Source: an uncultured bacterium (GTDB lineage Bacteria; Planctomycetota; UBA1135). Taken from it: a DNA stretch of 12,753 bases. This document shows positions 1-12,753 of the stretch, piece by piece. Position 1 is the first letter of the stretch. The number at the start of each line of letters is the position of its first letter. The stretch is from assembly GCA_937919925.1 (NCBI GenBank), contig CALFOT010000102.1, forward strand, positions 1 through 12,753, read 5' to 3'. A program made the translations under genes and the position numbers. Below the pieces are notes generated by a model. It searched no databases, had not been told where the DNA came from, and worked only from the letters and a program-made list of their open reading frames with translations.

Positions 1-71
1 CTCAACGGTTGGCGTTGCAACTCCTACCTGCTGTGCTGGCCCCATGGTTAGCGCGACGATCCCTGTGCGCT

Positions 72-92
72 TCCTTGCCGAAAGCGCAAGGA
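72..92 (+). promoter_or_regulatory. 7-bp inverted repeat (TCCTTGC-cgaaagc-GCAAGGA) in the 5' noncoding leader region; possible end-of-upstream-transcript hairpin or protein binding site
   Basis: Arms 72-78 and 86-92 are exact reverse complements with a 7-nt loop. No T-run follows, so it is not a canonical intrinsic terminator. Confidence 0.25.
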
Positions 93-105
93 GCCTAATC
101 CGGGA

Positions 106-131
106 ATAGTGGGAGGGAGCCATCCCACTAT
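106..131 (+). promoter_or_regulatory. 9-bp perfect inverted repeat ATAGTGGGA-N8-TCCCACTAT about 90-100 bp upstream of the sigma-54 -24 element; candidate enhancer (UAS) for a bacterial enhancer-binding protein
   Basis: Left arm 106-114 and right arm 123-131 are exact reverse complements. The position, about 100 bp upstream of the -24/-12 promoter, is the classical location of NtrC-type activator sites. Confidence 0.35.
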
Positions 132-207
132 GTGAGCCAGCATTTGCGCGGGCCTTTGTGGCTAGCGTCAACTCAAGCTGAAGGCGCCCCAGGTTGGAAC
201 ATCACTT

Positions 208-223
208 TGGCACGCGCCTTGCA
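208..223 (+). promoter_or_regulatory. sigma-54 (RpoN) dependent -24/-12 promoter, perfect consensus TGGCACG-N4-TTGCA
   Basis: TGGCAC at 208-213, spacer gcgcc, TTGCA at 219-223. The GG and GC dinucleotides are exactly 10 nt apart. The predicted TSS near 233-235 is about 20 nt upstream of the ATG at 254. An NtrC-family activator is encoded in the same gene array. Confidence 0.7.
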
Positions 224-253
224 TAACATCCAGAAACCCATGGAACTCTGAAC

Positions 254-805
254 ATGAAACTACTCACTCTTACTGTCTTAATACTCACAGCATCTTGCGC
301 TGCTCCGGAGGTTGAATCCGGTCCTGACACGATTCAACTTCGCTCAGCGATTTCAACCGCTCTTCTTGGTGGTGATGTCACCACGGCCGAAATGGCGGCC
401 CGCGAAGCAGAAAGCACTTTGCCCGGGGATGTTGTGGTTGCATTGCTCGCTGCTGAAGCGCATGCGGCTTCAGGCAACCCAAATGCAGCAATCGCCAGTC
501 TCGACCGCGCCATCATCGTGGCAACTACCGATGAGTTACTCCGACACGCTTATCGCAATCGCGGTTCACTCTATATGCAAGCTGGTCGCCCGACAGAAGC
601 ATTCGATGACCTTCAGCAGGCCTATGAACTCGGTGACACAAGCATGGCGTTACTCCGCGACCTTGGTGCCGCAGCCTATGGCTCCGGCAACTTCCAGGCT
701 GCTCGTGCGGCTTGGGAACAACTTCCCGACAACGATCGCAAGAGTGTCGACACCGTAGTCGGCCCCGGTTTTTTCCTGGAGAAGTCCGTCTCCATCAATC
801 GCTGA
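254..805 (+). CDS. secreted protein or possible lipoprotein with TPR-like repeats (183 aa)
   Basis: The N-terminus MKLLTLTVLILTASC is a classic signal peptide with a Cys at the end of the h-region; the lipobox is imperfect (T at -3). The body is Ala/Leu-rich with repeated helical pairs typical of TPR (e.g. AIASLDRAI...AYRNRGSLYMQAGRPTEAFDDLQQAYELGD). Confidence 0.8.
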   Translation: MKLLTLTVLILTASCAAPEVESGPDTIQLRSAISTALLGGDVTTAEMAAREAESTLPGDVVVALLAAEAHAASGNPNAAIASLDRAIIVATTDELLRHAYRNRGSLYMQAGRPTEAFDDLQQAYELGDTSMALLRDLGAAAYGSGNFQAARAAWEQLPDNDRKSVDTVVGPGFFLEKSVSINR

Positions 806-826
806 TCACCAACTGAGGACCCAACC

Positions 827-1864
827 ATGACCCTTTTTCTTAATCTAATCACCCTGGCTTTACTCGGGCTTCCACAACAAGAAGGCACTCAAGGTGAGAC
901 TGTGCAATCACCGTCAAGCTCGCAACAAGCCGGTGCCAGCCTCGTACTGCCCGACTTCGATCCTGCCGTTTCCTTTAATCAACTTGAACAAGGAATGCGT
1001 CGCTTGGATCCCGTCACAAAAACACTGCGTGATGCCAACGAGACCATTCATCCTCTGGTCGAGGAGTTCAAGATTGACCCCTCTCTGGAAAACCAGGCGA
1101 AACTGGAAACGGCCTTAGCGAAGTTCACCGCCGATCTTTCACGCAAGATACGCAGTGCTCTTGCTGCCCATGAAAAGGTAACCTTCGCATTTCAAGATAT
1201 CGTGCACGGTGTCAAAGGAATGGGGGTATCCCTTGAACTGTACTCTGCTGATCTGAAGCAGCAGGCCGCCACCGAAGAAGAAGCGCTCGCCGAGAGCGTG
1301 AAGCAGCTAGAGGAGGTAGCCGAGGCTTGGGATGTAGCCGAGGATGCTGAAGAAAAGGAGTCCTTGATGGAACAGTTCAAGGAGCTCTATCGGCTGCAAC
1401 AACGGCAAGTCTATCGCGCACGATATTTAGGTGCATTGGCCAATCACTACAAGGATCTTGCCGGCGGCGTGGTGCAACTGGATGGTTCCCTACGCATGGT
1501 GCATGGTCGCGTTGAGGATGCTTATGATCGGCTCGAAGATGCAGGTGAGATGCTTGCATTTGCCGCAGGCTTCCGTCGCGATGCCACCGGAATCGTAGCC
1601 CACTACCAGTCGTTCTTCGGCCAAGGGAACGATTCGGTGCGCAATGTCCTGGAGCGGATTCAAAGTATCGAAGGACGTCTCGAGATCTTCGAAGGCGCGT
1701 CCAGTGTGCTGGACGAAGCTGGTCCATTGATGCCCATGTTGCATGACATGGATCAACTCACCCAAGGCTTGAAAAACAGTGCCGAAACCGCCGACCAAAA
1801 TGAAGTGGTATCAGCCGATAGCTATTGGGAATCAAAAATGCAAAAAACCCTGCAAGGGGAATAG
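827..1864 (+). CDS. secreted acidic alpha-helical/coiled-coil protein of unknown function (345 aa)
   Basis: GAGGA RBS at 815-819, 7 nt before the ATG. The N-terminal hydrophobic signal peptide is MTLFLNLITLALLGLPQQE. The body is Glu/Ala/Leu/Gln-rich with predicted long helices. No recognisable catalytic motif. Confidence 0.8.
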   Translation: MTLFLNLITLALLGLPQQEGTQGETVQSPSSSQQAGASLVLPDFDPAVSFNQLEQGMRRLDPVTKTLRDANETIHPLVEEFKIDPSLENQAKLETALAKFTADLSRKIRSALAAHEKVTFAFQDIVHGVKGMGVSLELYSADLKQQAATEEEALAESVKQLEEVAEAWDVAEDAEEKESLMEQFKELYRLQQRQVYRARYLGALANHYKDLAGGVVQLDGSLRMVHGRVEDAYDRLEDAGEMLAFAAGFRRDATGIVAHYQSFFGQGNDSVRNVLERIQSIEGRLEIFEGASSVLDEAGPLMPMLHDMDQLTQGLKNSAETADQNEVVSADSYWESKMQKTLQGE

Positions 1865-1900
1865 AGAAATAACCCTTTACTAAACAACCATCGAGGAATC

Positions 1901-2464
1901 ATGATGAACACAATCCTACTGTTTTTCCTGGCCGCAATGCCGCAACAGGAATTCGCCTCTGCACAAAGCGCATATGAGCAAGTGCAGCCCACCCCTTCCG
2001 AAACGGTTCAAGTCCTGGTTGAGCGTAACGAGTTCACTCTCGCTCGTGTGACTGAGTTGGAAAGGCGCATAGCTGCCGACGAGACAAAATTGATTGAACT
2101 GGATCGCTTAGAGGTTGAGCGCTATTTGGCACTCAAAGCTCACTTCACGGATAAGGAGCTTGAGAAACGCCTTCAGGCCGAAGCGCGTACTTTCGAACTT
2201 CGCCGCAAGGGAGTCAAGCAGTCCATCGAACTGACCAACATCAACTTAGAAGATGCTCGCAATCGACTTGCTAAGTTGGACGTGGATCTTCGTCTCGCAC
2301 GCATCGAGCAAGGTCTTGTTCAAAACACAGAGCCTGCACCTGGAACGCCAGTGGCGGATCGGCTTGAAGCCCGTTCACGCACCGTTCTTCTGGATCGCGC
2401 AATGGCCGTCGGCAAGTTTGATTTCGTGTCGATTCCGCACTCTTGGGTCACATTGGAATTCTAA
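1901..2464 (+). CDS. secreted coiled-coil protein of unknown function (187 aa)
   Basis: GAGGA at 1893-1897 just upstream of a tandem ATG ATG. The signal peptide is MMNTILLFFLAAMPQQEFASA. Charged heptad-like stretches follow (ELERRIAADETKLIELDRLEVERYL..., LAKLDVDLRLARIEQ). Confidence 0.8.
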   Translation: MMNTILLFFLAAMPQQEFASAQSAYEQVQPTPSETVQVLVERNEFTLARVTELERRIAADETKLIELDRLEVERYLALKAHFTDKELEKRLQAEARTFELRRKGVKQSIELTNINLEDARNRLAKLDVDLRLARIEQGLVQNTEPAPGTPVADRLEARSRTVLLDRAMAVGKFDFVSIPHSWVTLEF

Positions 2465-2476
2465 GGAGTGCGAATC

Positions 2477-3268
2477 ATGCGTTGTGCGGAACCCATTGCG
2501 TGGATTGTCTCAATAGGAGTTCATGCCTGGCTATTGATGCCAGTGCTTGCAGAAACAAGTGGGCAGTCAACATCGGCAGAAGATGTTGCAACTTCGATAG
2601 TAGCAGTGGCGGTTGTCGCCGAACGCCCCCCTTCAAAGGTCGAGGTTGAACCTGAACAGGAGCCGGAGTATTTGGAAGAGGAGATGGCATCACCGGTGGA
2701 GTTGCGCCCCGCTGACGAGCTCGCTGTGTTTGAGGAGGATGGCGATTCTTGGGAGGAGTCACTGGCAGAACCAGAAGGCAGCGGAGAATCGTCACCAGCA
2801 TCAGCAATGGTGTTTTCCGATGATGCCGTGCGAGCGCTGAACTTGGTGCTGGATCTTTCGGATCATGATCTATTCCTTTCTGCTGCTCAGGACTTAGAGA
2901 TACGTTTCCTCATCTATCCGGCTTCTAAGTCTCCCAAGTGGGTACTTGAGTTACATGGCCCTGGTCTTGAATCGGTGGCACAAATAACCCCTGATTCTTT
3001 GGGTCAGCTTTCCCGTCGCGCGCACGATTTGACTCCCGATCGGTTTTTCCGCACAATTCGCAATCGTGCAACACAATCGGCTGGATTTCCCTCAACCGGG
3101 GCTCGTTTGGTTGCTGCAGTACCCGCTGGAACCGACAAGATGTTCCTTGCTGCGGAAAGGAGTTACCTCCAACAAGCTGGGCCTGCAGCAGCTCAAATGA
3201 GAACTCTGCATGGGTGCCTTGTCCGCGACGGCAGCACTTGGCAGTTAGAGATAACGGGGGGGGTGTAG
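2477..3268 (+). CDS. membrane-anchored protein with TonB-like N-terminal SxxxH transmembrane anchor and acidic Glu/Pro-rich spacer (264 aa from ATG 2477; the longest ORF begins at GTG 2468)
   Basis: AGGAG at 2464-2468 is 8 nt before ATG 2477. The GTG at 2468 overlaps the RBS and is unlikely to be the start. The TM segment IAWIVSIGVHAWLLMPVL carries the S-x3-H spacing seen in the TonB anchor. It is followed by the acidic stretch VEVEPEQEPEYLEEEMASPVELRP. I cannot recognise a TonB C-terminal domain. Confidence 0.75.
   Translation: MRCAEPIAWIVSIGVHAWLLMPVLAETSGQSTSAEDVATSIVAVAVVAERPPSKVEVEPEQEPEYLEEEMASPVELRPADELAVFEEDGDSWEESLAEPEGSGESSPASAMVFSDDAVRALNLVLDLSDHDLFLSAAQDLEIRFLIYPASKSPKWVLELHGPGLESVAQITPDSLGQLSRRAHDLTPDRFFRTIRNRATQSAGFPSTGARLVAAVPAGTDKMFLAAERSYLQQAGPAAAQMRTLHGCLVRDGSTWQLEITGGV
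3256..3263 (+). repeat. G8 homopolymeric tract immediately before the stop codon of CDS 2477..3268
   Basis: A direct read gives ...acg ggg ggg gtg tag. The tract lies at the junction of two reading frames that are both open here (the 2477 frame and the 3214/3331 frame). Confidence 0.9.
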
Positions 3269-3330
3269 AATCTGAACCTCTTGGCCTCTTTCCAGCTACC
3301 CACCCCCAATTCCTGTTCTTCGGAGAACCC

Positions 3331-4845
3331 TTGGCTCATCTCTTAGTCGTTGACGATGCTTATCATAAAGTCCGCTCTGGTCTTGATGCGGTATTGGATG
3401 AACACCGGGTCTCTGGTGCCACCGACGGCGCCGCGGCTCTGCAGCTGATTGAATCCGAACCTTCCATCGACGTTGTGCTGCTTGATGTGCGCATGCCTCC
3501 TCTGGTCGGCAAGATTGAAGAAGAAGAAGGGTTGGCGGTATTCGAGAAAATAAAGGAGATTCGACCAGAGTTGCCGGTGATTTTCCTTTCGGCTTACGAC
3601 GATCTCCGCTTAGTGAATCGCGCTTTGACAGCAGGTGGTTTTTGGTATTTGAAGAAGCCACCAGACTTAGAGGAGACTCGAAGTTTAGTGCGCCGGGCAG
3701 TCGAGCTGAGCCTTGCACAGAGGGAATCTACCGAGAGGCGCGCTGCAGCGGAAGCTCGTCTCCAAGTGGTATCGCGTACGGGGATTCGCAGACCTAATAG
3801 TCGGCTGGTTGGTGATTCATTCGTTCTTCGTCAACTCAACTTAGAGTTGGCGATGTTCGCGGCAACGGATGTTCCTGTACTTTTGCTTGGTGAGACAGGT
3901 TGTGGCAAAGAGCTGTGTGCCCATGAACTTCACGATTTGTCTGCTCGTCGAAGTGGCCCTTTTATTGCTGTCAATTGTCACGAGCTTAATCATAGTGAAA
4001 CTGCTCAGTCGAGGTTGTTCGGCCATAGCAAAGGAGCCTTTACCGGTGCTGTTGAAGACACGCAAGGAGCCTTTGAATCGGCTCATGGTGGCACATTGTT
4101 CCTCGATGAAATCGGCGATTTAGATCTTGATATGCAAGGCCGGTTATTGCGCGTACTTCAAGAGCGTGAGGTCGTGCGCATCGGTGCTGGCGAACGCCCT
4201 CGCGCCGTAGATGTGCGCATGGTCTTTGCCACCAATCGGAATCCCGAGGTCCTTGTAAGTGAAGGTATCGTTCGAGAGGATTTCTACTATCGAATTGCAG
4301 TCGGGGTAGTGAGAGCACCGGCGCTTCGTGAGCATCTCGATGATTTGGAGTTGCTGGTGCCGGCTTTGTTGCAAGCTTCTCTTGTCAGGGATCGGATTCC
4401 TGAATGTACCGTAAGTACTGCTGTTTATCCTTTGCTTTGCAACCACAATTGGCCAGGCAACGTGCGTGAGTTAGAGAATGTTTTGAAAAGGGCTGCCGTG
4501 CGAGCAGCCTCTCAAGGTGTCATCTCACCAGAGCACATTGATTTGCCAAGAGATACCGTTGCCTCAGCCACTTCGGCAACAATCTCAGGCGATTTGTTCA
4601 CAGAGATCTTGGGAAATGGGGGGTACTCTGACGGCTTGAAGCGATTCCGAGACGAATACGGAGAAATCGCAATGCGTGAGGTCCTGACCAGAGCGGTACG
4701 TCTCTCGGGTAGCGTGGTGCGCGCCGGTGAACTGCTTGGCTTTGTTCACCCGGACAGCCGAGCGAAGGATTATGAGAACCTTCGAGCTTGGATGAAAACT
4801 CTTGGCTTGCGCAAAAGTGATATCGCAGAAGGAGGTCTCGCGTGA
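3331..4845 (+). CDS. NtrC-family sigma-54-dependent transcriptional activator / response regulator (receiver + AAA+ sigma-54 interaction domain + Fis-type HTH); likely TTG start at 3331, while the ORF-track frame opens at 3214
   Basis: Receiver motifs are present: LLVVDD, phospho-Asp context VVLLDVRMP, and the conserved Lys in WYLKKP. The AAA+ domain has Walker A GETGCGKE, the sigma-54 contact loop GAFTGA, Walker B LFLDEIGDL, and R-finger/sensor regions VRMVFATNRN and EDFYYRI. The C-terminal HTH is ...RAGELLG.... GGAGA at 3320-3324 lies 6 nt before TTG 3331, and the receiver fold begins at MAHLLVVDD. The stop overlaps the next start (GTGA at 4842-4845). Confidence 0.9.
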   Translation: MAHLLVVDDAYHKVRSGLDAVLDEHRVSGATDGAAALQLIESEPSIDVVLLDVRMPPLVGKIEEEEGLAVFEKIKEIRPELPVIFLSAYDDLRLVNRALTAGGFWYLKKPPDLEETRSLVRRAVELSLAQRESTERRAAAEARLQVVSRTGIRRPNSRLVGDSFVLRQLNLELAMFAATDVPVLLLGETGCGKELCAHELHDLSARRSGPFIAVNCHELNHSETAQSRLFGHSKGAFTGAVEDTQGAFESAHGGTLFLDEIGDLDLDMQGRLLRVLQEREVVRIGAGERPRAVDVRMVFATNRNPEVLVSEGIVREDFYYRIAVGVVRAPALREHLDDLELLVPALLQASLVRDRIPECTVSTAVYPLLCNHNWPGNVRELENVLKRAAVRAASQGVISPEHIDLPRDTVASATSATISGDLFTEILGNGGYSDGLKRFRDEYGEIAMREVLTRAVRLSGSVVRAGELLGFVHPDSRAKDYENLRAWMKTLGLRKSDIAEGGLA

Positions 4846-6467
4846 GTGAATTGATTTGCCCGGATTGTGAACAGCAGCTTGATGGCATCATAGATTTCTG
4901 TACGAACTGCGGCGCCAATCTTGAAGAAGTCGACGCCGGCAGCGACGTTTTCTTTGCGGACTCAGATTTTGAGACCACTGCTGAGGAGCCGCCTTCGCTG
5001 GAATCCTCCACTGTCATTTCGATGGAACCGATTGTTGCTCCATCGCCGCCGCCTGTTATCGCGCCACGAGTTGAAATTCCTTCTTCCAACGATGACCCCC
5101 CAAACCTGGTCATGGATACGGGGGTAAGCGCTCGCGTTGGTGAAAATGGTGTCCTCTGGTTCGGATTGGCGAACAATCGAACCTCCCGGATTAATGCTCG
5201 TCTTGCCGTCAATATGGATAAAGGGGCTCGCGAGATGTTTCACCATTTCAATGGGGAGCGCGAGCTGCGCGTTGGGCCATCCGGCGAAGGTACTGCTTCA
5301 GTTTCGTTCCGCGCTCAAGTAGCAGGTGAGTTTCCGCTTTCGGTCCGCCTCTTCGTCGAAGACTACCGTGCAAGCGGGAAGGTTTCATTCTACCAGGTTG
5401 CCGATCACTGTAAGGTTTTCTTCGGTATCTCTAGTCAACAAAGCGGTGGTTCCATCACCGTGCACAACGAAGTTTGTATCGATCGAAACTATGGCGGCGA
5501 TATCAGCATTCGCCCTGAAGCTCTGCGCAGCATTCAGGAGAAAATGGGAGTTAACGAAGGCGCAAACAGAGCTGCTCCCCAGGAGTTGCCGCTGGAGGCG
5601 CCAGAATCTGTGCAGGGTTGGATACAGCACTCTAGAAACGCCATTCGAGGTTCTCATCTCCGCTTGGATGTCATGCGGCTCGATAAGTTGTATCGGCGTT
5701 TCCATATCCTGGTTTGTAACGAACTCTGGTTTGGTCGTAATGATGTCACGCAACTTCCCGGAGGTCGTAGAGGATTCAACACCCTTGCTTTGCGTTGGCT
5801 TCCCTGTCGGTCAAAAGAGCAAGACCCTAAGAGTTTTTCCTTTAATCAGTCCATCAGCCGCCATCATGCCGGCATGTTGCATGCCGATGAAGCTGGCACA
5901 GCTATTAACTGTTGCTCCAGCTCACTTCAGGTAGATACCCATCAACTTGGCAAAGGAGATTCGCAGCAGTTTCATGCTGGATCCGCCTATCGACTCAAGC
6001 TCGGACATCCGGCCCTTGAGTTTGATATCACTCCTTTGACGACTTCGGGAGAGGATCCTTCGCAATGGTTGCGGGATTGGAACCAATTTACAGGTATGAG
6101 TGGAGCGATTGTTCATCCAACGCGTCACGATGCGATTCGAATCGACCGTGTCAATAACTTGGAGCAAGTCAGTTACGTCATGCTCCTGCAGTCTGCATCC
6201 ATTGGCGGTGGGCGCCGAGATGCTTGTTTTGTCAAGGGACTGCCCCCCGCAGTCTTGAGACTCGCGCGTTGTGGATCCAACCTATTCGTCTTGACTGGCC
6301 CAGATTTTGTAAATCAAGGTACTGCTGCTGCCGACGAAAGGTATTGGCGACCAATATGCGCAGGCGATCGGTACGACTCGGGCGAGTGGAGCTACCGGTT
6401 TTCGACATCTTCGGTTTCCGATACCAAAAGAGAAGATGATTTGGTGAGTGCCTTGGAGGACGAATGA
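4842..6467 (+). CDS. N-terminal zinc-ribbon (DZR-type, CxxC-N11-CxxC) protein with a central FHA-like domain (541 aa), GTG start
   Basis: GGAGG at 4831-4835 is 6 nt before GTG 4842. The N-terminus is MSELICPDCEQQLDGIIDFCTNCGANL, followed by a Pro-rich linker. The FHA signature elements are WFGRN...SISRHHAGM...EAGTAINC...LGKGDSQ...YRLKLG. The loop between the first and second FHA elements is longer than usual, so the call is moderate. Confidence 0.6.
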   Translation: MSELICPDCEQQLDGIIDFCTNCGANLEEVDAGSDVFFADSDFETTAEEPPSLESSTVISMEPIVAPSPPPVIAPRVEIPSSNDDPPNLVMDTGVSARVGENGVLWFGLANNRTSRINARLAVNMDKGAREMFHHFNGERELRVGPSGEGTASVSFRAQVAGEFPLSVRLFVEDYRASGKVSFYQVADHCKVFFGISSQQSGGSITVHNEVCIDRNYGGDISIRPEALRSIQEKMGVNEGANRAAPQELPLEAPESVQGWIQHSRNAIRGSHLRLDVMRLDKLYRRFHILVCNELWFGRNDVTQLPGGRRGFNTLALRWLPCRSKEQDPKSFSFNQSISRHHAGMLHADEAGTAINCCSSSLQVDTHQLGKGDSQQFHAGSAYRLKLGHPALEFDITPLTTSGEDPSQWLRDWNQFTGMSGAIVHPTRHDAIRIDRVNNLEQVSYVMLLQSASIGGGRRDACFVKGLPPAVLRLARCGSNLFVLTGPDFVNQGTAAADERYWRPICAGDRYDSGEWSYRFSTSSVSDTKREDDLVSALEDE

Positions 6468-7489
6468 GCCGTTTCGAAGAACGTATTCGCGCTGCCGAGG
6501 AAAGGGCGAAGGGTAGAGTCCAAGCGGCAGCAAACTGTCATTCCGCCTCGCCTGCGGAGCGTGGCACATGGGCTGAGTATCGGGAGCGCATGGACAGCCT
6601 ACGCAAGGAAATCGACAATCGGTTTCAATCGACCGGAAGTTATCAGAGCAAGGAATGCGGCCCTTTAGATCGCATTTTCCTCGAGCGTGCACTTTCCGCC
6701 CTGAAGCATGGCCTCGTTGAATCCTGTTTCTACAACTTAAGGATTCTCGCCCAAAAGGTGGCCCTCGATAGAGGGAGCCAAGACTTGAGCGCCCTGACCA
6801 CTGCTGGTGAGCGAGTACCGACGGTACGCAAAGAGCTTGGCTTGTTCCTTCAGGGCCGGGTTCCATGTGGAATCCTGGTGGCTGATCTTCTCCCAGATTT
6901 GGCGAGTGTTTTTTTGAAAACACTCCCGTTGCTTGAAGGTGCCGTAGTGGGAGGCTTGGCGATGGCGAAGGAGATTCCAGCTTTGGTAGATGCCGTCCTT
7001 TCGGGCATCGCAAGAGAAGCTGATAGTCTGCGCTCTCAGCGATTATCCTTATTCGCTCTTGTGCGTCGAGCATTGGAGATTGAAGGGCCAAGACTTCAAG
7101 AAGCGGACATGGATGTAAGCGTTGAAAACGAAGTGGAAGACGATCGCATTCATGCTGATGAACCACGTCTTCTCGATACTATCGTTGAGTTGTTAAGAAA
7201 CGCCGCAGTTCATCGAGAAGGAAGTGGTCGCGGGAAGGTGGTCATTAACTTGAGGCCGCGCGAGAACTATATTCACCTTGTGGTCTCAAGTCGACCTGCT
7301 CTTCCACCCCTCATCCCTCTTAATCGACTTTTCGAGACCGGAGTCTCGCGGAGGGAAGGTGGGGGCGATGGGCTTGCAACCGTCCAGCGCACCTTGACTT
7401 CCCATGGTGGCAGGGCGGAGCTTCAGTTTTCTTGTGGCAGTGGCACCTTCGACGTTTGCCTAGCCTTGCCTACCCGGCTTCCGGTTTAG
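6464..7489 (+). CDS. atypical histidine-kinase-like ATPase (GHKL/HATPase_c at C-terminus; no clear H-box; degenerate G1 box) (341 aa)
   Basis: ATGA overlap with the upstream stop (6464-6467). The N-box is LLDTIVELLRNAAVH, the F-box is LFETGVSRR, and the G2 box is GGGDGLATVQRTLTSHGG, with the typical HK ending GSGTFDVCLALP. The expected G1 position reads VVSSRPALPP instead of DxGxG. The N-terminal 230 aa are helical; H26 is the only weak H-box candidate. Confidence 0.65.
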   Translation: MSRFEERIRAAEERAKGRVQAAANCHSASPAERGTWAEYRERMDSLRKEIDNRFQSTGSYQSKECGPLDRIFLERALSALKHGLVESCFYNLRILAQKVALDRGSQDLSALTTAGERVPTVRKELGLFLQGRVPCGILVADLLPDLASVFLKTLPLLEGAVVGGLAMAKEIPALVDAVLSGIAREADSLRSQRLSLFALVRRALEIEGPRLQEADMDVSVENEVEDDRIHADEPRLLDTIVELLRNAAVHREGSGRGKVVINLRPRENYIHLVVSSRPALPPLIPLNRLFETGVSRREGGGDGLATVQRTLTSHGGRAELQFSCGSGTFDVCLALPTRLPV

Positions 7490-7498
7490 CCAAGCCGG
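7474..7498 (+). terminator. GC-rich 7-bp hairpin (CCGGCTT-N11-AAGCCGG) spanning the stop codon of CDS 6464..7489; possible weak or partial terminator or mRNA-stability element without a U-tract
   Basis: Arms 7474-7480 and 7492-7498 are exact reverse complements. It is followed by cccaggaatcgggg rather than a T-run. Confidence 0.2.
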
Positions 7499-7538
7499 CC
7501 CAGGAATCGGGGATAAATGAATCACATTTGGTGAGTTC

Positions 7539-7585
7539 CCCTGCATCTCAGGGAGTCTGGATTCACAAAAAACACCGATGCAGGG
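7539..7585 (+). promoter_or_regulatory. 9-bp perfect inverted repeat CCCTGCATC-N29-GATGCAGGG directly upstream of the second sigma-54-like promoter; candidate regulator binding site
   Basis: Arms 7539-7547 and 7577-7585 are exact reverse complements separated by 29 nt. The centre lies about 40 bp upstream of the -24 element at 7598. Confidence 0.3.
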
Positions 7586-7597
7586 CGTAGATGGCAG

Positions 7598-7613
7598 TGG
7601 CATGATGGTTGCA
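7598..7613 (+). promoter_or_regulatory. sigma-54-type -24/-12 promoter with one mismatch: TGGCATG-N4-TTGCA
   Basis: TGGCAT at 7598-7603, spacer gatgg, TTGCA at 7609-7613. The GG/GC spacing is correct. It sits in the only sizeable intergenic gap (119 bp) of the array, immediately upstream of the lipoprotein gene. Confidence 0.5.
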
Positions 7614-7635
7614 CTCTTTCATTGTTGTCCCCCTG

Positions 7636-8748
7636 ATGACTACCATGCGAATCATCATCATTACTACATTGAGTCTCGTTGGCTGTGTGAGCCCCCCTCT
7701 TGGCTCTACTTTCGAGGATGCTCAGTCTCTCGCTAATCGCGGGGAGTTCGGAGCTGCAGTAGCTGTAGCAGAACCGCTGCTGCTCAGAACAACTTCAGTT
7801 TCTACACTTGAGGAGGTCTGTGGGTGGGCGCTAAAGGCCGGGCGGATGGAGCAGGCATATGATTTCTCCAATCGGCTCATCGGCTTCGAATCCCAATCAT
7901 GGGTTGGCCATCGCACTCGTGGGCTGGCTCTTGTTTCTTTAAAGCGGCTCAGTGCTGCGATTCCAGATCTTGAGTTTGTCCATCGTAATGGCCCGCCAGA
8001 TTCTGAAGTTCAACGCGCCCTTGGTCTTGCGATGGAATTTGTTGGAAGAGATCCAGGCAAGGCAAACTCCCTGCTAGTTTTATCTGGCTTCGATGATGAT
8101 GAGGTGACCGCCGCTCTCAGCCGCCTCGAAGTTCTGCTTCATCCCGCGCCACTGCCTTCCGTCACAGTTACCGACGAACCTGCCGCATGGACTCAAGTCG
8201 CCGCACTTGATTTGGCCACGACATGTTTTGTCTTAGATGAGCAGCTGAGGCTTTCGGGCTTCCTTCTCAAAAACCAGGAAGCCGCTGCTCTTACCGGCGA
8301 CGAATATGCATCTGGCTTACGCGCTGCCGACCGTCGTCGAGATGCTGCTGCCCTTGTCGACCTTCCAGACGAAGATGGCACAGCCGCCGTTCTCACTCAT
8401 TTCGTCGAAGTCGGTCTACTGAGTGTCGACAACAACAAAATCAACCCCGACGAGATTCTCCAGCGTGGTCAGTTTGCACAACTTGTAACGGACCTTCTGC
8501 GATTACTCGAGGAGGATAAAGGATTTGCGGTTGGAGGTGACGGTGAATCTCCTTTCTCGGACATGAGCGTTCGGCATCCCCGCTTTGCGGTTGCGAGCGC
8601 AGCTTGTGCGCTTGGTGTTCTGCACGCAGACGCATCGCGACGTTTTCGGCCTTCGGACCCGCTTTCTGGCGCGGAACTTTCCGACGCTCTCGACCTACTT
8701 CGCGAAGTTCTTCTTCGTTCTCCGCTTTACCAAGAGATGATTCGATGA
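7636..8748 (+). CDS. lipoprotein with TPR-like helical repeats and two C-terminal SLH (S-layer homology)-like repeats (371 aa from ATG 7636; the track ORF opens at TTG 7609, which overlaps the promoter)
   Basis: The lipoprotein signal is MTTMRIIIITTLSLVGC (lipobox LVGC). The SLH-like motifs are LPDEDGTAAVLTHFVEVGLLSVDNNKINPDEILQRGQFAQLV and FSDMSVRHPRFAVASAACALGVLHADASRRFRPSDPLSGAELSDAL. Both follow the F-x-D...A...G(I/V/L)...F-x-P...(I/L)-(T/S)-R/G-A-E pattern. Confidence 0.7.
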   Translation: MTTMRIIIITTLSLVGCVSPPLGSTFEDAQSLANRGEFGAAVAVAEPLLLRTTSVSTLEEVCGWALKAGRMEQAYDFSNRLIGFESQSWVGHRTRGLALVSLKRLSAAIPDLEFVHRNGPPDSEVQRALGLAMEFVGRDPGKANSLLVLSGFDDDEVTAALSRLEVLLHPAPLPSVTVTDEPAAWTQVAALDLATTCFVLDEQLRLSGFLLKNQEAAALTGDEYASGLRAADRRRDAAALVDLPDEDGTAAVLTHFVEVGLLSVDNNKINPDEILQRGQFAQLVTDLLRLLEEDKGFAVGGDGESPFSDMSVRHPRFAVASAACALGVLHADASRRFRPSDPLSGAELSDALDLLREVLLRSPLYQEMIR

Positions 8749-9803
8749 TAGCCCTCCTTTCGATTGCCTGTTTTGCTTTGGCTCAGCCACTTGTGGCTTT
8801 ACCGGCACAAGAACCTAGTCATGATGTCTCGGATCAATCTGCAAGGTCGACTTCACTCGAGGTCGCAGGAGAAGCTGTTGGGCTTACTCGTGAAGCTGCA
8901 ATATCCGCTGCGAAACAAGATGCCATGTCGCGCGCGATTCAGGAACTTTATCGCGAAGAAGGTCTTGCCGCACCCCTGCAGGCTGTTGCCGATCGCTTAG
9001 CAGCGCTGGATCGTTCACTCGGTGGTTTTCTTGCCGCTGAGACTCTTGATTCTGAATGGAAGGAAGAGACTAGTCTCGCGAAGGTTCGCTTGAAAGTCGA
9101 AGCCGACATCGTCGCTTTTCGTCGCTGTGCTTCACGTGCTCTGCGTGTGCAAGTAATTTGCACAGGCCCCCTTTCAGACCAGATTGCATCCAGTTTCAAG
9201 GAGAGGCTTGCCGCCGAAGGTTTTGAGGTGGTATTGGGTGGATCGCGGGAAGGCGCCGATGCGATTGTCATCGCCAAGCCGGTGCTCGATAAATTGCCAG
9301 GCGGCGAGGCAGGTTTCTCTTCTTGGCGCGGCGCCCTCACGATTGAAGTTCATTCGCTCTCGATGCGTGACGACGCCACAGTTGTGCTTGCTGATCGTCG
9401 ATTCGAACCAAAGGGAGCCATGGTCGGCAGCAATGCCCGTGAAGTGGCACGGAAGACCATCCTTCCGCTTTGTTCAGAGGCGGCAGATCTTGCCGCACAG
9501 CGTATTTTGAACGCAGCTTCGGCAAGTGCCCGTTGGACAATCTCCGTCGAAGGCGCAACCGAACGCTACCTCGTCGAAGATTTGCTCGACGCCATTACCC
9601 AACGAGGTGTTTCTGCCGGCGTGGTGGGGGTTAGTTCTCTCAGCTGGGATCCTCCGAATGCAACCTTCCGGTTGGTCGTCGATCGTCGTGGGGCGAATCG
9701 CCTTGGTGGTATCATGGGCACTCTGGATTTGTCTGAAGGTAGGCGGGTGCGGGTGTTACGCGAAGCAAACTCAACCATGATCGTTAGAATTGAATCCTCC
9801 TGA
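8745..9803 (+). CDS. secreted protein with N-terminal LPP20-like domain (353 aa from ATG 8745; the track ORF is artificially extended upstream to 8604)
   Basis: ATGA overlap with the stop of the lipoprotein gene (8745-8748). The signal peptide is MIALLSIACFALAQPLVALPAQEP. EVAGEAVGLTREAAISAAKQDAMSRAIQELY resembles the LPP20/FlgP-type lipoprotein fold signature. The C-terminal half (GADAIVIAKPV...LTIEVHSLSMRDDATVV) weakly resembles the CsgG/FlgO-type motif. Confidence 0.55.
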   Translation: MIALLSIACFALAQPLVALPAQEPSHDVSDQSARSTSLEVAGEAVGLTREAAISAAKQDAMSRAIQELYREEGLAAPLQAVADRLAALDRSLGGFLAAETLDSEWKEETSLAKVRLKVEADIVAFRRCASRALRVQVICTGPLSDQIASSFKERLAAEGFEVVLGGSREGADAIVIAKPVLDKLPGGEAGFSSWRGALTIEVHSLSMRDDATVVLADRRFEPKGAMVGSNAREVARKTILPLCSEAADLAAQRILNAASASARWTISVEGATERYLVEDLLDAITQRGVSAGVVGVSSLSWDPPNATFRLVVDRRGANRLGGIMGTLDLSEGRRVRVLREANSTMIVRIESS

Positions 9804-9810
9804 TTTTGTC

Positions 9811-10899
9811 ATGTATTTCCTTCTCACTCTTCCTCTCGTTCTGTTTCAGAACGGCCCCTCTCAGCTCGATGAGATTCTTCCCAGTCGAGCCGAAAGCCTT
9901 GCTATTGAGCTCGCCGCTGACTTGAATGAAAGCGGTATTCTCGGAGAGCATGGCATCCAAGCGTTCGCCTTCCCAGGTGCAATCGGTGATGTACAAGGCG
10001 CTTTTCATGACCGCCTTTTAAATCACATGTTGCGCGACTTTGGCTTGGAGTTGATTGCCGAGCGCGAAGAAAGGGTTCAAATACTGCAAAACTATTTCCG
10101 TAAAGATGGTTTTGAACAAGGCATCTATGATGGTGGCAGCCTAAAGAGTCTTGGTGGACAATTTTTGGACAACGAGGCGATTCTCGGCGCCAGAATTTAT
10201 TCGGTGGACGGAGCGGATGGGTTAGAGATATATGCTCAAGCTGAACTTTGGGATGCACGCCGCGCCGTCATGGTGTGGAATAAAACGATATCGCTCTTGG
10301 TGAAGGAACCGGTTTCTCCGCCTGTTGTCGTAGAGAAAGAGGAATCCTTATTCGTGCCAGTCCTAATCATTCTTGCTGGAATCATCGCCGCGATCGCCAT
10401 ATTCAGTCTAATGAATCGCAGGGAACAGATTGCGAAGGCTCAGCGACGTGGAGGGGCATCTATCGAGAGGCAATCGCAGAAAAAGCGCGACCGTGATTTG
10501 CGAGGTGAGGCTGCTCGACGAGCGCATGCAGGAGCAGATCGCTTGACCGCAGCAGCAAGCCAAGTCGATGCCGCAGCTCGTTCTATCTTCGAAAATTCAG
10601 GTGAAGACTTACGGTCGCTCGCAAGGAATTTCGAGAAGGCTGCCGCAGGTACATTTCGCCGTCCCGTAGAGGAGCGAGGTGATTCAGAGATTGCTGCTGC
10701 ACGCGCCCTAGCTGACCATGACGAACGTACACTCGGCCTAGTAGAGGAAATGGGTCGTACTGTTGATACCCTAGTTGCCGGGGCTTCTTCTGATTCCGCT
10801 GAGGCGGTAGCTAAGTTGGCTGCCAAGCTAGAAGACCTCATCCAGAGTGCTAATCACCGTCTCGGAGAACGCACTGACCTGATTCGTTCCAGTAGTTAA
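9811..10899 (+). CDS. bitopic membrane protein: signal peptide, periplasmic CsgG/FlgO/TolB_N-like motif domain, single TM helix, cytoplasmic charged coiled-coil tail (363 aa from ATG 9811; alternative TTG 9790)
   Basis: The N-terminus is MYFLLTLPLVLFQNG. The periplasmic region FAFPGAIGD...GLELIAEREERVQILQNYFRKDGFEQGIYDGGSLKSLGGQFLDNEAILGARIYSVDGADGLEIYAQAELWDARRAVMVW follows the motif ER..l..il.E...q.sG.yd....k.lG...gadaii.G.i......g..i.a.l.d..tg.vvw. The TM helix is LFVPVLIILAGIIAAIAIFSL, followed by an Arg/Ala/Glu-rich tail. Confidence 0.55.
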   Translation: MYFLLTLPLVLFQNGPSQLDEILPSRAESLAIELAADLNESGILGEHGIQAFAFPGAIGDVQGAFHDRLLNHMLRDFGLELIAEREERVQILQNYFRKDGFEQGIYDGGSLKSLGGQFLDNEAILGARIYSVDGADGLEIYAQAELWDARRAVMVWNKTISLLVKEPVSPPVVVEKEESLFVPVLIILAGIIAAIAIFSLMNRREQIAKAQRRGGASIERQSQKKRDRDLRGEAARRAHAGADRLTAAASQVDAAARSIFENSGEDLRSLARNFEKAAAGTFRRPVEERGDSEIAAARALADHDERTLGLVEEMGRTVDTLVAGASSDSAEAVAKLAAKLEDLIQSANHRLGERTDLIRSSS

Positions 10900-10907
10900 T
10901 AATTGTC

Positions 10908-12533
10908 ATGACCCCCTTCTCATTTCTGAAACGATGCCCTGAGTGTAAGAACAAGCTAGAGCGGGGAGCTAATTTTTGCGGGTGCGGTGCGCCGGTGCGT
11001 GACTTTCGTCGCACTTGTCACCACTGTCATCGCATCGTTGATGCCCAAGCGGAAAGGTGTGCTCATTGCAACGCCCTTCTTGCAGAGGTCGAACCTCGCT
11101 ATGTTTTGATTCGCTGGGCTCGCCGTTCGCGTGAATTTGCCCGACGCATTGATGTTGTGGCCTTCACGGAAGGCGAAGAGGTAATCACAGATTCGGGCGC
11201 GGCACTTCAGGGTGCACTTGATGGTGGTGTTACGGTCGAAGCCGGGACGAAAGCGTTACTTCTTGTTAACGGTAGCTTGGAGAAGGTGCTTGAGCCCGGT
11301 TGGACTTCCACAACCAGCGATGCTCTCTCGGTTTATTCAGGTGAAGAATATATTCACACTTTGACCGTGATTGCTGTTGACTCAAGCGACACCGATTTAG
11401 CATGGCGATTCCCGCTTGCACTTGACTCGAACTCGGATGCCGGTGATGAGAAATCTTCCGCGATGGCGCTCGTCACTAAAGATGGGTTTCGTGTTGCGCT
11501 AAGGTTAGGGATTACCATTAGCCTTGCCGATGCAGCGGCCTTGGCGAGTAATCTGCTCAAGGAGCAAGTTTCCATTACTGTCAGTAGTCTCGCCGCTTGG
11601 CTTGCGCCTACGGTAGACGCCGCTGTTCGAGAACTCGTTGGACAGACCGATAGCGCAGAATTAAGAACGCCAGATAGCAATTGGCGTAGCCAATTTGAAG
11701 GTTTGTTGCGCGATCGACTCCAGCGTGACCTTGAGGTTGTTGGCCTCCGAATGGAAAGGCTCAGGGGTTTTGGGCTGGAGAGTCCTAGGCTCAAAGAGTT
11801 GGAAGACGATCGAGAAACCACTGCAGTCATTCGTGGCAAGGCGGGAGAGGCTCGAGCAAGACTTGAGCACATCGAGAATCTTCAAGATGCACTTGTCAAG
11901 AAACGTCGTCTCGATGACAAGGCACGTCTGGAAATCGAGAAGTCGGGCATTCTCACCGACGCAGAGATTGCCGAACTTAATCGCCATGCAGATGATGAGG
12001 AACTCGGTTGGAAACACGCGCGCGAAATGTTGGCCGCGAAACACGCTGCAGGGGTTGAAGAAATATCGAAACGTGCGTCCTTGAAGCTATTCGTCGAAAG
12101 GAAGGAAGAGGAAATTCGTCTTGATGACAAGCGCAAGCGGCTCGATATGGACCGAGATGAGCGGGAACGCGATCACGAGGCTGATGTCGCTCTGAAAATC
12201 ATTGCTGCCAAACAGCAACATAAAATGGAACAGATTCAGGTCTTCCAGGATTGGGATGATCCCGAGAAAATCCTTACCGTTCTTGCTGGGATTAGTCCGG
12301 ATGCTGCAGAAGCACTTCGTGCAAAATATCAGCGTGCCAACGACGATGACCGCGTTGAGTTGCTCAAGGAAATGCAAGGAGAAATGTCCAAGGTTCAACA
12401 GTCTGCGATGGGTGGAATGGCCAGTGTTGCAGCGGCAAAGGCAACCACACGGTTAATTCCATGTCCACATTGTCGCATCAATGTTTCCGTTGATACAACG
12501 AAGTGCCCCTCTTGCGATAAGCTTGTGAAGTAG
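10908..12533 (+). CDS. soluble zinc-ribbon / SPFH (band-7, flotillin-like) / coiled-coil protein with two N-terminal and one C-terminal zinc ribbons (541 aa)
   Basis: The N-terminus contains CPECKNKLERGANFCGCGAPV and CHHCHRIVDAQAERCAHCNALL. The SPFH motifs are VEAGTKALLLVNGSLEKVLEPGW and MALVTKDGFRVALRLGITISLADAAALASNLL, plus a downstream GLRMERLRGFGL region. A long E/R/K/D-rich coiled coil follows. The C-terminus is IPCPHCRINVSVDTTKCPSCDKLV. No TM segment. Confidence 0.7.
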   Translation: MTPFSFLKRCPECKNKLERGANFCGCGAPVRDFRRTCHHCHRIVDAQAERCAHCNALLAEVEPRYVLIRWARRSREFARRIDVVAFTEGEEVITDSGAALQGALDGGVTVEAGTKALLLVNGSLEKVLEPGWTSTTSDALSVYSGEEYIHTLTVIAVDSSDTDLAWRFPLALDSNSDAGDEKSSAMALVTKDGFRVALRLGITISLADAAALASNLLKEQVSITVSSLAAWLAPTVDAAVRELVGQTDSAELRTPDSNWRSQFEGLLRDRLQRDLEVVGLRMERLRGFGLESPRLKELEDDRETTAVIRGKAGEARARLEHIENLQDALVKKRRLDDKARLEIEKSGILTDAEIAELNRHADDEELGWKHAREMLAAKHAAGVEEISKRASLKLFVERKEEEIRLDDKRKRLDMDRDERERDHEADVALKIIAAKQQHKMEQIQVFQDWDDPEKILTVLAGISPDAAEALRAKYQRANDDDRVELLKEMQGEMSKVQQSAMGGMASVAAAKATTRLIPCPHCRINVSVDTTKCPSCDKLVK

Positions 12534-12561
12534 CGGACTTCAGCCTCGGACGATTCCTGAA

Positions 12562-12753
12562 ATGCGCTGCACCACCTGCGGATTTGAAAATTCTGGCACA
12601 GCCAAATTCTGTGCCGAATGTGGTGCCAGGATTGCGCCGCCTTCCTCATCGGCCCAAGTTCCTGACGCAGAGCTTTCACTCCAGCCCACCCTCGGCTCTG
12701 GTCCTCCATCGGACTCCCCAGCAGCGTTAGCTGGCTCCGAATCCCTCATCGCC
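12562..12753 (+). CDS. 5'-partial CDS (continues past window end): N-terminal zinc-ribbon protein with Pro/Ser-rich linker
   Basis: ATG at 12562, open to the end of the window (64 codons), so it is absent from the ORF track. MRCTTCGFENSGTAKFCAECGARI is the same CxxCG-N9/11-FCxxCG zinc-ribbon pattern as at the N-termini of CDS 4842 and CDS 10908. Confidence 0.6.
   Translation, partial: MRCTTCGFENSGTAKFCAECGARIAPPSSSAQVPDAELSLQPTLGSGPPSDSPAALAGSESLIA

Follow-up and report, generated by a model that had tools for sequence, protein, structure and literature searches.

A Putative Trans-Envelope Gene Module of Uncultured Aquatic Planctomycetota with an SLH-Like Lipoprotein, a Predicted Single-Pass Connector and a Zn-Ribbon SPFH Protein

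Gene Organization and Conservation of the Locus

The DNA under study is a stretch of 12,753 nucleotides (nt), contig CALFOT010000102.1 of the NCBI GenBank assembly GCA_937919925.1 (positions 1 to 12,753 of the forward strand), which comes from an uncultured bacterium of the Planctomycetota lineage UBA1135. This whole stretch is referred to below as the window. It carries 11 genes and the 5′ start of a twelfth, numbered g1–g12, and every long open reading frame (ORF) in it lies on the + strand. Here, we describe the genes g8–g12, which may encode a trans-envelope sensing or scaffolding module. The features of this part of the window, with lengths and positions in amino acids (aa) for the proteins, are listed below.

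7598..7613, + strand: sigma-54 -24/-12 element TGGCATGATGGTTGCA, 32 nt in front of the ATG of g8
7645-8748, + strand: g8, 367 aa, putative TPR/SLH-like lipoprotein
8353..8505, + strand: SLH-like repeat B of g8, aa about 237-287, degenerate
8551..8679, + strand: SLH repeat C of g8, aa 303-345, Pfam SLH
8745-9803, + strand: g9, 352 aa, predicted secreted protein
9811-10899, + strand: g10, 362 aa, predicted bitopic protein
9862..10305, + strand: predicted periplasmic alpha/beta domain of g10, aa about 18-165, LpoB/TolB_N/PelC/GNA1162 fold class
10348..10410, + strand: predicted transmembrane (TM) helix of g10, aa 180-200
10411..10896, + strand: predicted cytoplasmic helical tail of g10, aa 201-362, with conserved motifs
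10908-12533, + strand: g11, N-terminal double Zn ribbon, SPFH/Band_7 domain, long helical region and C-terminal Zn ribbon
12562..12753, + strand: g12 (5′ part in the window), Zn-ribbon Ser/Thr protein kinase

A preliminary description of this region had placed three same-strand ORFs at about the coordinates of g8, g9 and g10, which was borne out. Only the start of g8 was changed. It had been set at 7636, an in-frame ATG 9 nt upstream, and was replaced by the ATG at 7645, which is common to two orthologous loci and is also the choice of the gene callers. The stop codon of g8 overlaps the start codon of g9 in the sequence ATGA (8745-8748), and the spacers between g9 and g10 and between g10 and g11 are 7 nt and 8 nt long, respectively. 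The G+C content is even across the region (0.49-0.56). Rfam and repeat scans of the region revealed no RNA family and no notable repeat, and a PADLOC scan of the window proteins gave no match to a defence system.

Relatives of g10 were few. When 1.84 billion representative proteins were scanned exhaustively with HMMER, only 6 representatives of its family were identified, and word-indexed searches with g10, g9 or the g10 family profile returned only 2-3 proteins each, too few for deep alignments. Among 185,579 species genomes, 2 loci were found, both in metagenome-assembled genomes labelled Planctomycetota or Phycisphaerales; a third locus is present in GCA_964389745.1, and a metagenome scan added nothing beyond the contig already found. 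The g10 protein is identical on 27 contigs from aquatic metagenomes, and a copy of 69% identity occurs on a JGI contig with the gene order unchanged. Seven relative loci were recovered (L007, L008, L009, L010, L011, L012 and L018), most of them on short contigs. The g9–g10 order is kept in all seven, and g11 comes next wherever the contig continues beyond g10, directly 3′ of it at a spacing of 8-20 nt (L007, L008, L009, L011, L012 and L018). Altogether, the order g8/g9–g10–g11 is constant in 7 lineages at 25-57% aa identity, with gaps of 7-20 nt or overlaps; the g9–g10 junction itself is a 7-9 nt gap or a 4-nt overlap. We conclude that g8–g10 are genuine, conserved and linked genes of an extremely rare family, all members of which belong to uncultured aquatic Planctomycetota. 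The earlier view of these genes as an envelope module is in line with this synteny of g8–g9–g10–g11, which holds in the relatives as far as their contigs extend.

The Putative SLH-Bearing Lipoprotein g8

The lipobox pattern used for all proteins was [LVI][ASTVI][GAS]C ending the signal peptide. The N-terminus of g8 (MRIIIITTLSLVGC) matches it with L-V-G-C at residues 11-14, and the orthologues, which are 42-44% identical to g8 over the full length, have LLAGC. Neither g9 nor g10 matches the pattern, and the N-terminus of g10 contains no Cys. Behind the predicted signal peptide of g8, a TPR region spans about aa 60-160 (TPR_9 of Pfam, E 1e-5). The g8 family profile, when compared with the PDB, gave the TPR proteins DNAJC3 and MamA at E of about 1e-4 and, weakly, NlpI at E of about 0.1.

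The C-terminal part of g8 contains a single match to Pfam SLH (PF00395), repeat C, which scores 19.4 bits (E 0.001) and is thus below the gathering cut-off of 20.8. We consider this match credible because the orthologues reach 32.2 bits (L010) and 22.6 bits (L009) at the same position. About 65 residues before repeat C, the family profile matches the SLH domain of B. anthracis Sap (3pyw) with E 0.012, and hhalign matches this second, more degenerate repeat, repeat B, to repeat C in the same register (E 0.0022, 56 columns). SLH domains bind peptidoglycan or a pyruvylated wall polymer and carry a conserved Arg in their TRAE motif. At this place, repeat B has an invariant R274-G275 and repeat C has S-G-A-E, without the Arg. 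The segment upstream of repeat B showed no significant similarity to a third SLH repeat (hhalign E 0.5-0.7), and two repeats are therefore detectable in g8 instead of the canonical three in tandem, which make up one wall-binding module; such a module may also be built from one repeat per chain of a trimer. It is reasonable to regard g8 as an SLH-bearing lipoprotein whose SLH region is non-canonical. The earlier assignment to this class agrees with the lipobox, the SLH scores of the orthologues and the second repeat, but not with the score of the window protein taken by itself.

The Predicted Secreted Protein g9

The N-terminus of g9 (MIALLSIACFALAQPLVAL) is strongly hydrophobic, with a Kyte–Doolittle (KD) hydropathy of 2.24, and lacks a lipobox; the protein is predicted to be secreted. 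It matched no known family. Pfam gave no match to g9 alone at E ≤ 1, nor to g9 and five homologues when the limit was relaxed to E ≤ 10; NCBIfam gave no match, and the profile search against PDB sequences was empty. The hidden Markov model (HMM) of LPP20 (PF02169) was among those without a match at either limit, and the LPP20-like character ascribed to this protein in the preliminary description is unsupported by these searches. The AlphaFold2 (AF2) model of g9 is of low confidence (pLDDT 36.8). No relationship between g9 and g10 was detected by hhalign, and a second LpoB-like domain in the middle of g9 is only a reading of the sequence pattern.

In three of the relatives (L009, L010 and L007), g8 and g9 form one continuous in-frame ORF, with the lipobox first and a Pro/Ala/Glu-rich linker between the two parts. 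This fusion reinforces the translational coupling through ATGA that had been noticed before, and it places g9 in the same compartment as g8 and suggests that both act as one unit. Since the most divergent lineage (L007) has the fused gene, the separate genes of the window probably represent the derived state.

The N-termini of g2, g3, g9 and g10 (827-890, 1904-1960, 8745-8815 and 9811-9870) share a hydrophobic core with no Lys or Arg before it and a Pro-Gln-rich end: LGLPQQEG in g2, AAMPQQEF in g3, ALPAQEP in g9 and FQNGPSQ in g10. This pattern may be a lineage-specific signal-peptide or sorting feature.

The Predicted Bitopic Protein g10

Hydrophobic segments were scored in 19-aa windows with a criterion of KD ≥ 1.6. 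Apart from the N-terminus, the only such segment in g10 is formed by residues 180-198 (LFVPVLIILAGIIAAIAIF; KD 3.03), after which about 164 aa follow. In 7/7 family members, the net charge is +3 to +5 in the 20 residues after this segment and -2 to +2 in the 20 residues before it. By the positive-inside rule, the basic C-flank predicts a cytoplasmic tail and an exported N-terminal domain (N-out/C-in), and the short hydrophobic N-terminus could be a signal peptide. A protein with one TM helix in this orientation that is not a lipoprotein had been proposed earlier, and the topology predicted here is the same.

A model of g10 was built with AF2 from a 7-sequence alignment (mean pLDDT 75.7). It contains an alpha/beta domain at residues 18-165 (block pLDDT 64-90) and a TM helix that runs on to residue 249 and is followed by three more helices. 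The block pLDDT of the tail is mostly 75-95, with lower values in the loops between the helices and about 60 right after the membrane. The preliminary description had given the tail as about 170 aa of cytoplasmic coiled coil. The length was close, but of the coiled coil only the four confident helices of the model can be retained.

The ectodomain model was compared with solved structures using Foldseek. The matches included GNA1162 (4hrv, E 1.2e-3), PelC (9h80_A, E 0.046, probability 0.97) and TolB (7mx5_B, probability 0.98), and the closest solved structures are LpoB (4q6l, 4q6z) and GNA1162. The modelled ectodomain thus falls into the LpoB/TolB_N/PelC/GNA1162 fold class, which is also the fold class of CsgG. 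The HMMs of CsgG (PF03783), FlgO and TolB_N gave no match at E ≤ 1 to g10 or five homologues, and the PDB profile search with the g10 family returned spurious helical matches only. The domain measures about 150 aa, shows no inserted hairpins in the model and is not preceded by a lipobox, which together with the missing HMM match places g10 outside the CsgG family. What can be kept of the CsgG/FlgO-like domain predicted earlier is therefore the fold class and not the family.

The tail of g10 contains the conserved motifs A-T-x-RGG, RDxxL, G-x-F-x-x-PVE, LADHDxRxLGLVEE and RRLGERxDLI. The motifs A-T-x-RGG, G-x-F-x-x-PVE, LADHDxRxLGLVEE and RRLGERxDLI are kept down to 26% identity, and the tail is thus more than a spacer. 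A possible Hpt domain in the tail (Pfam E 0.11) was rejected, as the candidate His is replaced by Gln in two homologues. The linker between the ectodomain and the TM helix is about 15 aa long in the lineage of the window. In the proteins P0007 (L011), P0008 (L012) and P0009 (L007), it contains a charged helical insert of 100-130 aa rich in Glu, Arg and Ala, and the distance of the ectodomain from the membrane must therefore vary among lineages. Two of these relatives also have lipobox-like N-termini (LFLATC in P0008 and LLLSC in P0009), which may point to a variant that has two anchors or spans the periplasm.

The SPFH Protein g11 and the Kinase g12

The product of g11 was assigned by its Pfam matches to Band_7 (PF01145; 38.8 bits, cut-off 23.6) and DZR (30.7 bits); the L011 orthologue scores 25.5 bits with Band_7. 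No 19-aa window of g11 reaches KD 1.6, and the protein has no membrane anchor of its own. Unlike flotillins or HflK/C, it would therefore need a partner for reaching the membrane.

Only the 5′ part of g12 lies in the window. A longer copy of this gene (L001 12752-13441) matches Pkinase with 114.9 bits and also Zn_Ribbon_1. In L009, g12 (6152-6874) is located directly after g11 and is 70% identical, a conservation above that of g8–g11.

Predicted Sigma-54 Promoters and the Upstream Genes

The remaining features that bear on the regulation of the module, together with two upstream genes, are as follows.

110-127: inverted repeat TGGGAGGGAGCCATCCCA, candidate activator site upstream of the g1 promoter
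208..223, + strand: second sigma-54 type promoter TGGCACGCGCCTTGCA, before g1
824-839 of contig L014, just outside the window: third sigma-54 element, a perfect match, before exbB
2477-3268: g4, 263 aa, one N-terminal TM helix with S-x-x-x-H (SIGVH), acidic Pro-containing linker and C-terminal domain
3214-4845, + strand: g5, NtrC-type sigma-54 activator with a receiver domain

Exact matches to the sigma-54 pattern TGGCAY-N5-TTGCW occur at just 2 places in the window, which fall into its only two intergenic gaps and are each on the + strand. By chance, 0.01 matches would be expected, and at least 2 matches occurred in 0/200 shuffles. In L009 and L010, the element is found 33 nt upstream of g8 and forms the longest conserved block of the upstream alignment. 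A loose pattern that allows 2 mismatches gave 6 matches vs. 7.5 expected, which is no better than chance, and only the exact-pattern test and the conservation across loci were given weight. The three elements (TGGCAY-N5-TTGCA) sit 21-32 nt before exbB, g1 and g8, the first genes of their putative transcription units. The g5 protein matches Sigma54_activat (E 1e-56) and Response_reg (E 3e-16) in Pfam and ntrC in NCBIfam (E 6e-94).

The placement of the element before g8 and the nearby g5 suggest that g8–g12 form one sigma-54-dependent operon, with g5 as its candidate regulator. As such elements stand before exbB, g1 and g8, the region of roughly 15 kb has the appearance of a single sigma-54 regulon that includes its NtrC-type activator. 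A candidate activator site, the 18-bp inverted repeat TGGGAG-N6-(C/A)TCCCA, precedes two of the three promoters, those of exbB and g1, by 50-80 nt (L014 756-773 and 2528-2545). The exact repeat is absent upstream of g8, where a partly conserved GGGAGT..GGATTC block is found.

Just upstream of the window, positions 860-2516 of L014 encode MotA_ExbB (205 aa), ExbD (156 aa) and a 190-aa ORF without a family match, followed by g1; an FGE-sulfatase gene lies farther upstream of exbB. Within the window, g1 encodes a TPR lipoprotein, g2 and g3 encode exported-looking proteins without family matches, g6 a Zn-ribbon protein and g7 an HATPase_c protein. The C-terminal domain of g4 gave no match to Pfam (TonB_C, TolA) or the PDB, and g4 is possibly a TonB/TolA-like transducer with a new output domain. 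For g6 (4842-6467; WFGRND...SISRHHAGML...), an FHA domain, which would go well with the kinase nearby, was considered by eye and set aside, as it had no sequence support from Pfam or the PDB.

Short Zn ribbons recur in the N-termini of g6 (4842-4930) and g12 (12562-12640), at both ends of g11 (10908-11090 and 12460-12530) and in a Zn-ribbon/TPR protein encoded upstream of g8 in L009 (153-1256). They may represent a common docking or membrane-association module. The preliminary description had not remarked on the sigma-54 promoters, on the Ser/Thr kinase with its Zn ribbon downstream or on the ExbB/ExbD/TonB-like genes upstream.

The contigs that bear the locus come from about 30 samples, and nearly all are 13-15 kb long (for example, L001-L006 and L014-L017). 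Those examined end upstream of exbB, within the FGE-sulfatase gene where it is visible, and inside the kinase gene. These breaks are likely due to large paralogous families of both genes in Planctomycetes, which disrupt the assembly.

Proposed Function of the Module

On this basis, we propose that g8–g12 encode, in an uncultured aquatic planctomycete of the Phycisphaerae type, a module for sensing or scaffolding across the envelope, and we give this reading a probability of roughly 40%. The lipoprotein g8 would be anchored in a membrane facing the periplasm and would grip peptidoglycan or a wall polymer with its SLH repeats, and g9 would be its obligate periplasmic partner. On the periplasmic side of the inner membrane, the g8/g9 unit would touch the small alpha/beta ectodomain of g10. 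The four-helix cytoplasmic tail of g10 would bring the soluble Zn-ribbon SPFH protein g11, and possibly also the kinase g12, to the membrane; alternatively, an SPFH assembly might surround the tail. In this way, a cytoplasmic scaffold and phospho-signalling could be linked to the condition of the wall or outer membrane, and the output may feed back on g5, the putative driver of the module, the g1–g7 operon and the adjacent exbB-exbD. We infer the putative physical complex across the envelope from the gene order, the gene fusion and the predicted topology.

Several observations weigh against this proposal. All links between the compartments rest on gene context, and g9, with neither a Pfam nor a PDB match and with its low-pLDDT model, has no assigned fold. 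The SLH score of the window protein lies under the Pfam cut-off, the repeats number two and not the canonical three, and one of them lacks the conserved Arg. The predicted signal peptides of g9 and g10 have no basic n-region. The geometry of g10 differs by lineage, as its linker of about 15 aa in the window compares with 100-130 aa in three relatives. In L007, an M1 peptidase gene follows g11 in place of g12. Furthermore, no Pfam match to PspA/IM30 was found among the 11 window proteins, and rpoN was not seen on the recovered contigs, all of which are short.

The genes could also be co-transcribed without any physical bridge between their products. In such a case, g8/g9 would be an independent periplasmic wall-associated adaptor, comparable to NlpI or LpoA and serving, for example, hydrolases or synthases of the wall. 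The products of g10, g11 and g12 would form a separate inner-membrane microdomain/kinase unit, and the two halves would have regulation alone in common. The weak similarity of the g8 profile to the TPR lipoprotein NlpI fits this explanation, as does the lack of a sequence relationship between g9 and g10, and envelope functions are often grouped in operons without forming complexes. However, the g9–g10 order is strictly kept, with its short gaps or overlap, at 25-57% identity. The g10 ectodomain is conserved and belongs to a fold class that LpoB, TolB and PelC use for binding proteins, and no lineage was found with one half alone, in a small sample of mostly short contigs. We regard mere co-transcription as rather unlikely, and a physical connection of the two halves as the better account.

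A Tol-Pal/TonB-like energised machine seems to us unlikely. Here, the co-regulated ExbB/ExbD proton channel and the TonB/TolA-like g4 anchor would drive conformational work on periplasmic proteins, namely the TPR lipoprotein g1, the coiled-coil proteins g2/g3, the g8/g9 unit that would bind the wall, and g10 with its TolB_N/LpoB-like domain. Such a machine would tether or constrict the outer membrane or regulate wall synthesis, with g8 in the role of Pal and the g10 ectodomain in that of the TolB N-domain or LpoB. Much in the neighbourhood is suggestive: MotA_ExbB and ExbD are encoded directly upstream, after a sigma-54 promoter of their own, g4 has the N-terminal TM helix with S-x-x-x-H and the acidic Pro-containing linker, TPR proteins are close by, and the g10 ectodomain matches LpoB and TolB. 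Moreover, a published survey detected no known outer-membrane tether in Planctomycetes (10.1101/2021.05.31.446380). However, no Pfam match to a TolB beta-propeller, an OmpA-like Pal, TonB_C or TolA_III was found in the window or its flanks, and g10 is predicted to be anchored in the inner membrane, where TolB and LpoB are not. In L009, a Zn-ribbon/TPR gene precedes g8 instead of the g1–g7 operon, so the module and the motor are separable, and the family is far too rare for a general planctomycete tether.

An apparatus for export or assembly of a surface polymer or fibre, with g10 as a periplasmic ring in analogy to CsgG (curli) or PelC (Pel polysaccharide), has in its favour the PelC match of Foldseek and the shared fold class of CsgG, but we consider it highly improbable, as g10 has no CsgG HMM match or lipobox, its 150-aa domain leaves no room for the CsgG membrane hairpins, and no glycosyltransferase, polymerase, secretin, beta-barrel or fibre subunit gene is present in any locus.

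The trans-envelope module may also be seen in a wider frame. The genes exbB-exbD, g1–g7 and g8–g12 (roughly 15 kb) would then encode a previously undescribed trans-envelope system of Phycisphaerae energised by the proton motive force, an extension that we judge quite unlikely. In such a system, the SLH lipoprotein with g9, the LpoB/TolB_N-like connector, an SPFH cage and the Zn-ribbon kinase could sense or maintain the attachment of the outer membrane, the wall and the inner membrane to one another. It could be a functional hybrid of Tol-Pal and a Psp/SamGHI-type stress system.

Each domain type encoded at the locus is known. Their combination, an SLH/TPR lipoprotein with g9, an LpoB-class single-pass protein with a cytoplasmic tail, a Zn-ribbon SPFH protein, a Zn-ribbon kinase, sigma-54 promoters and an ExbBD/TonB-like set, is not described in the literature that we found. 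If the proposed module exists, it would represent a compact wiring of a diderm envelope, from a wall-bound periplasmic unit through a single-pass protein to an SPFH scaffold and a kinase, under sigma-54 control and beside an ExbBD motor. It would extend the LpoB/TolB_N/CsgG fold class by a membrane-anchored variant and provide a diderm counterpart to the recruitment of soluble SPFH proteins by dedicated membrane partners. It would also offer a candidate wall-attachment protein for Planctomycetes, the phylum in which the survey found no known outer-membrane tether. With 6 representatives in 1.84 billion proteins, the family is too rare to be a general planctomycete tether, and its importance is limited by this rarity and by the want of an experimental handle. 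In our judgment, the anatomy predicted from the sequences is solid and the context intriguing; the function is wholly inferred and the distribution narrow.

Comparison with Known Systems

LpoB, the activator of the penicillin-binding protein (PBP) PBP1b, is a lipoprotein on a long disordered linker from the outer membrane. In contrast, g10 has no lipobox, a predicted inner-membrane TM helix and a conserved 160-aa tail that is predicted to be cytoplasmic. Sequence identity between LpoB and g10 is 5-8%, with no HMM relationship, and no PBP gene is linked to g10. CsgG, PelC and GNA1162 (DUF799) belong to the same broad fold class as the modelled g10 ectodomain. All three are lipoproteins, and CsgG and PelC form rings associated with the outer membrane, whereas g10 is no lipoprotein.

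The likeness to Tol-Pal consists in the TolB fold match of g10 and in the nearby genes for TolQ/R-type ExbB/ExbD, a TolA/TonB-like S-x-x-x-H anchor, TPR proteins and a putative wall-binding lipoprotein. The locus differs from Tol-Pal in that no beta-propeller, OmpA-like Pal or TolA domain III is found, the TolB_N-like domain is predicted to be membrane-anchored, the wall part is SLH-like, and genes for an SPFH protein and a kinase are attached.

Peptidoglycan or its polymers serve as the attachment site of envelope proteins with SLH domains (PMC10628300, PMC5020339). The likeness of g8 to anchors of this type, such as the S-layer protein Sap and the outer-membrane tethers OmpM/Mep45, lies in its orthologues, which score above the Pfam SLH cut-off, and in a second repeat that resembles the SLH domain of Sap. 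It has two degenerate repeats, not three, with the motif Arg in repeat B only, and a putative lipid anchor and TPRs replace the S-layer or porin domain. SLH tethers were not previously described in the phylum of g8, and none of the known outer-membrane tethering systems was found in Planctomycetes by the survey mentioned above (10.1101/2021.05.31.446380).

For the cytoplasmic half, archaeal ESCRT neighbourhoods have been described in which SPFH proteins are combined with coiled coils and Zn ribbons (PMC10936438). In B. subtilis, YdjI/SamI is a soluble SPFH protein with a C-terminal Zn finger that is recruited to the membrane by YdjG/H, and the three proteins are encoded in an envelope-stress operon (PMC8581546; bioRxiv 10.64898/2026.02.06.704340). 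The locus described here differs from this SamGHI (PspA-YdjGHI) system in several respects. No PspA/ESCRT-III gene is present among the window genes, and g10 has no sequence relationship to YdjG or YdjH. The host is a diderm, periplasmic SLH/TPR components are added, and the predicted control is by sigma-54 instead of sigma-W. Both systems contain a TM-less SPFH protein with Zn-binding elements, and g11, with its Zn ribbons, is encoded directly after the predicted membrane protein g10. By analogy, YdjGHI/SamGHI appears to be the nearest precedent for the cytoplasmic half of the proposed module.

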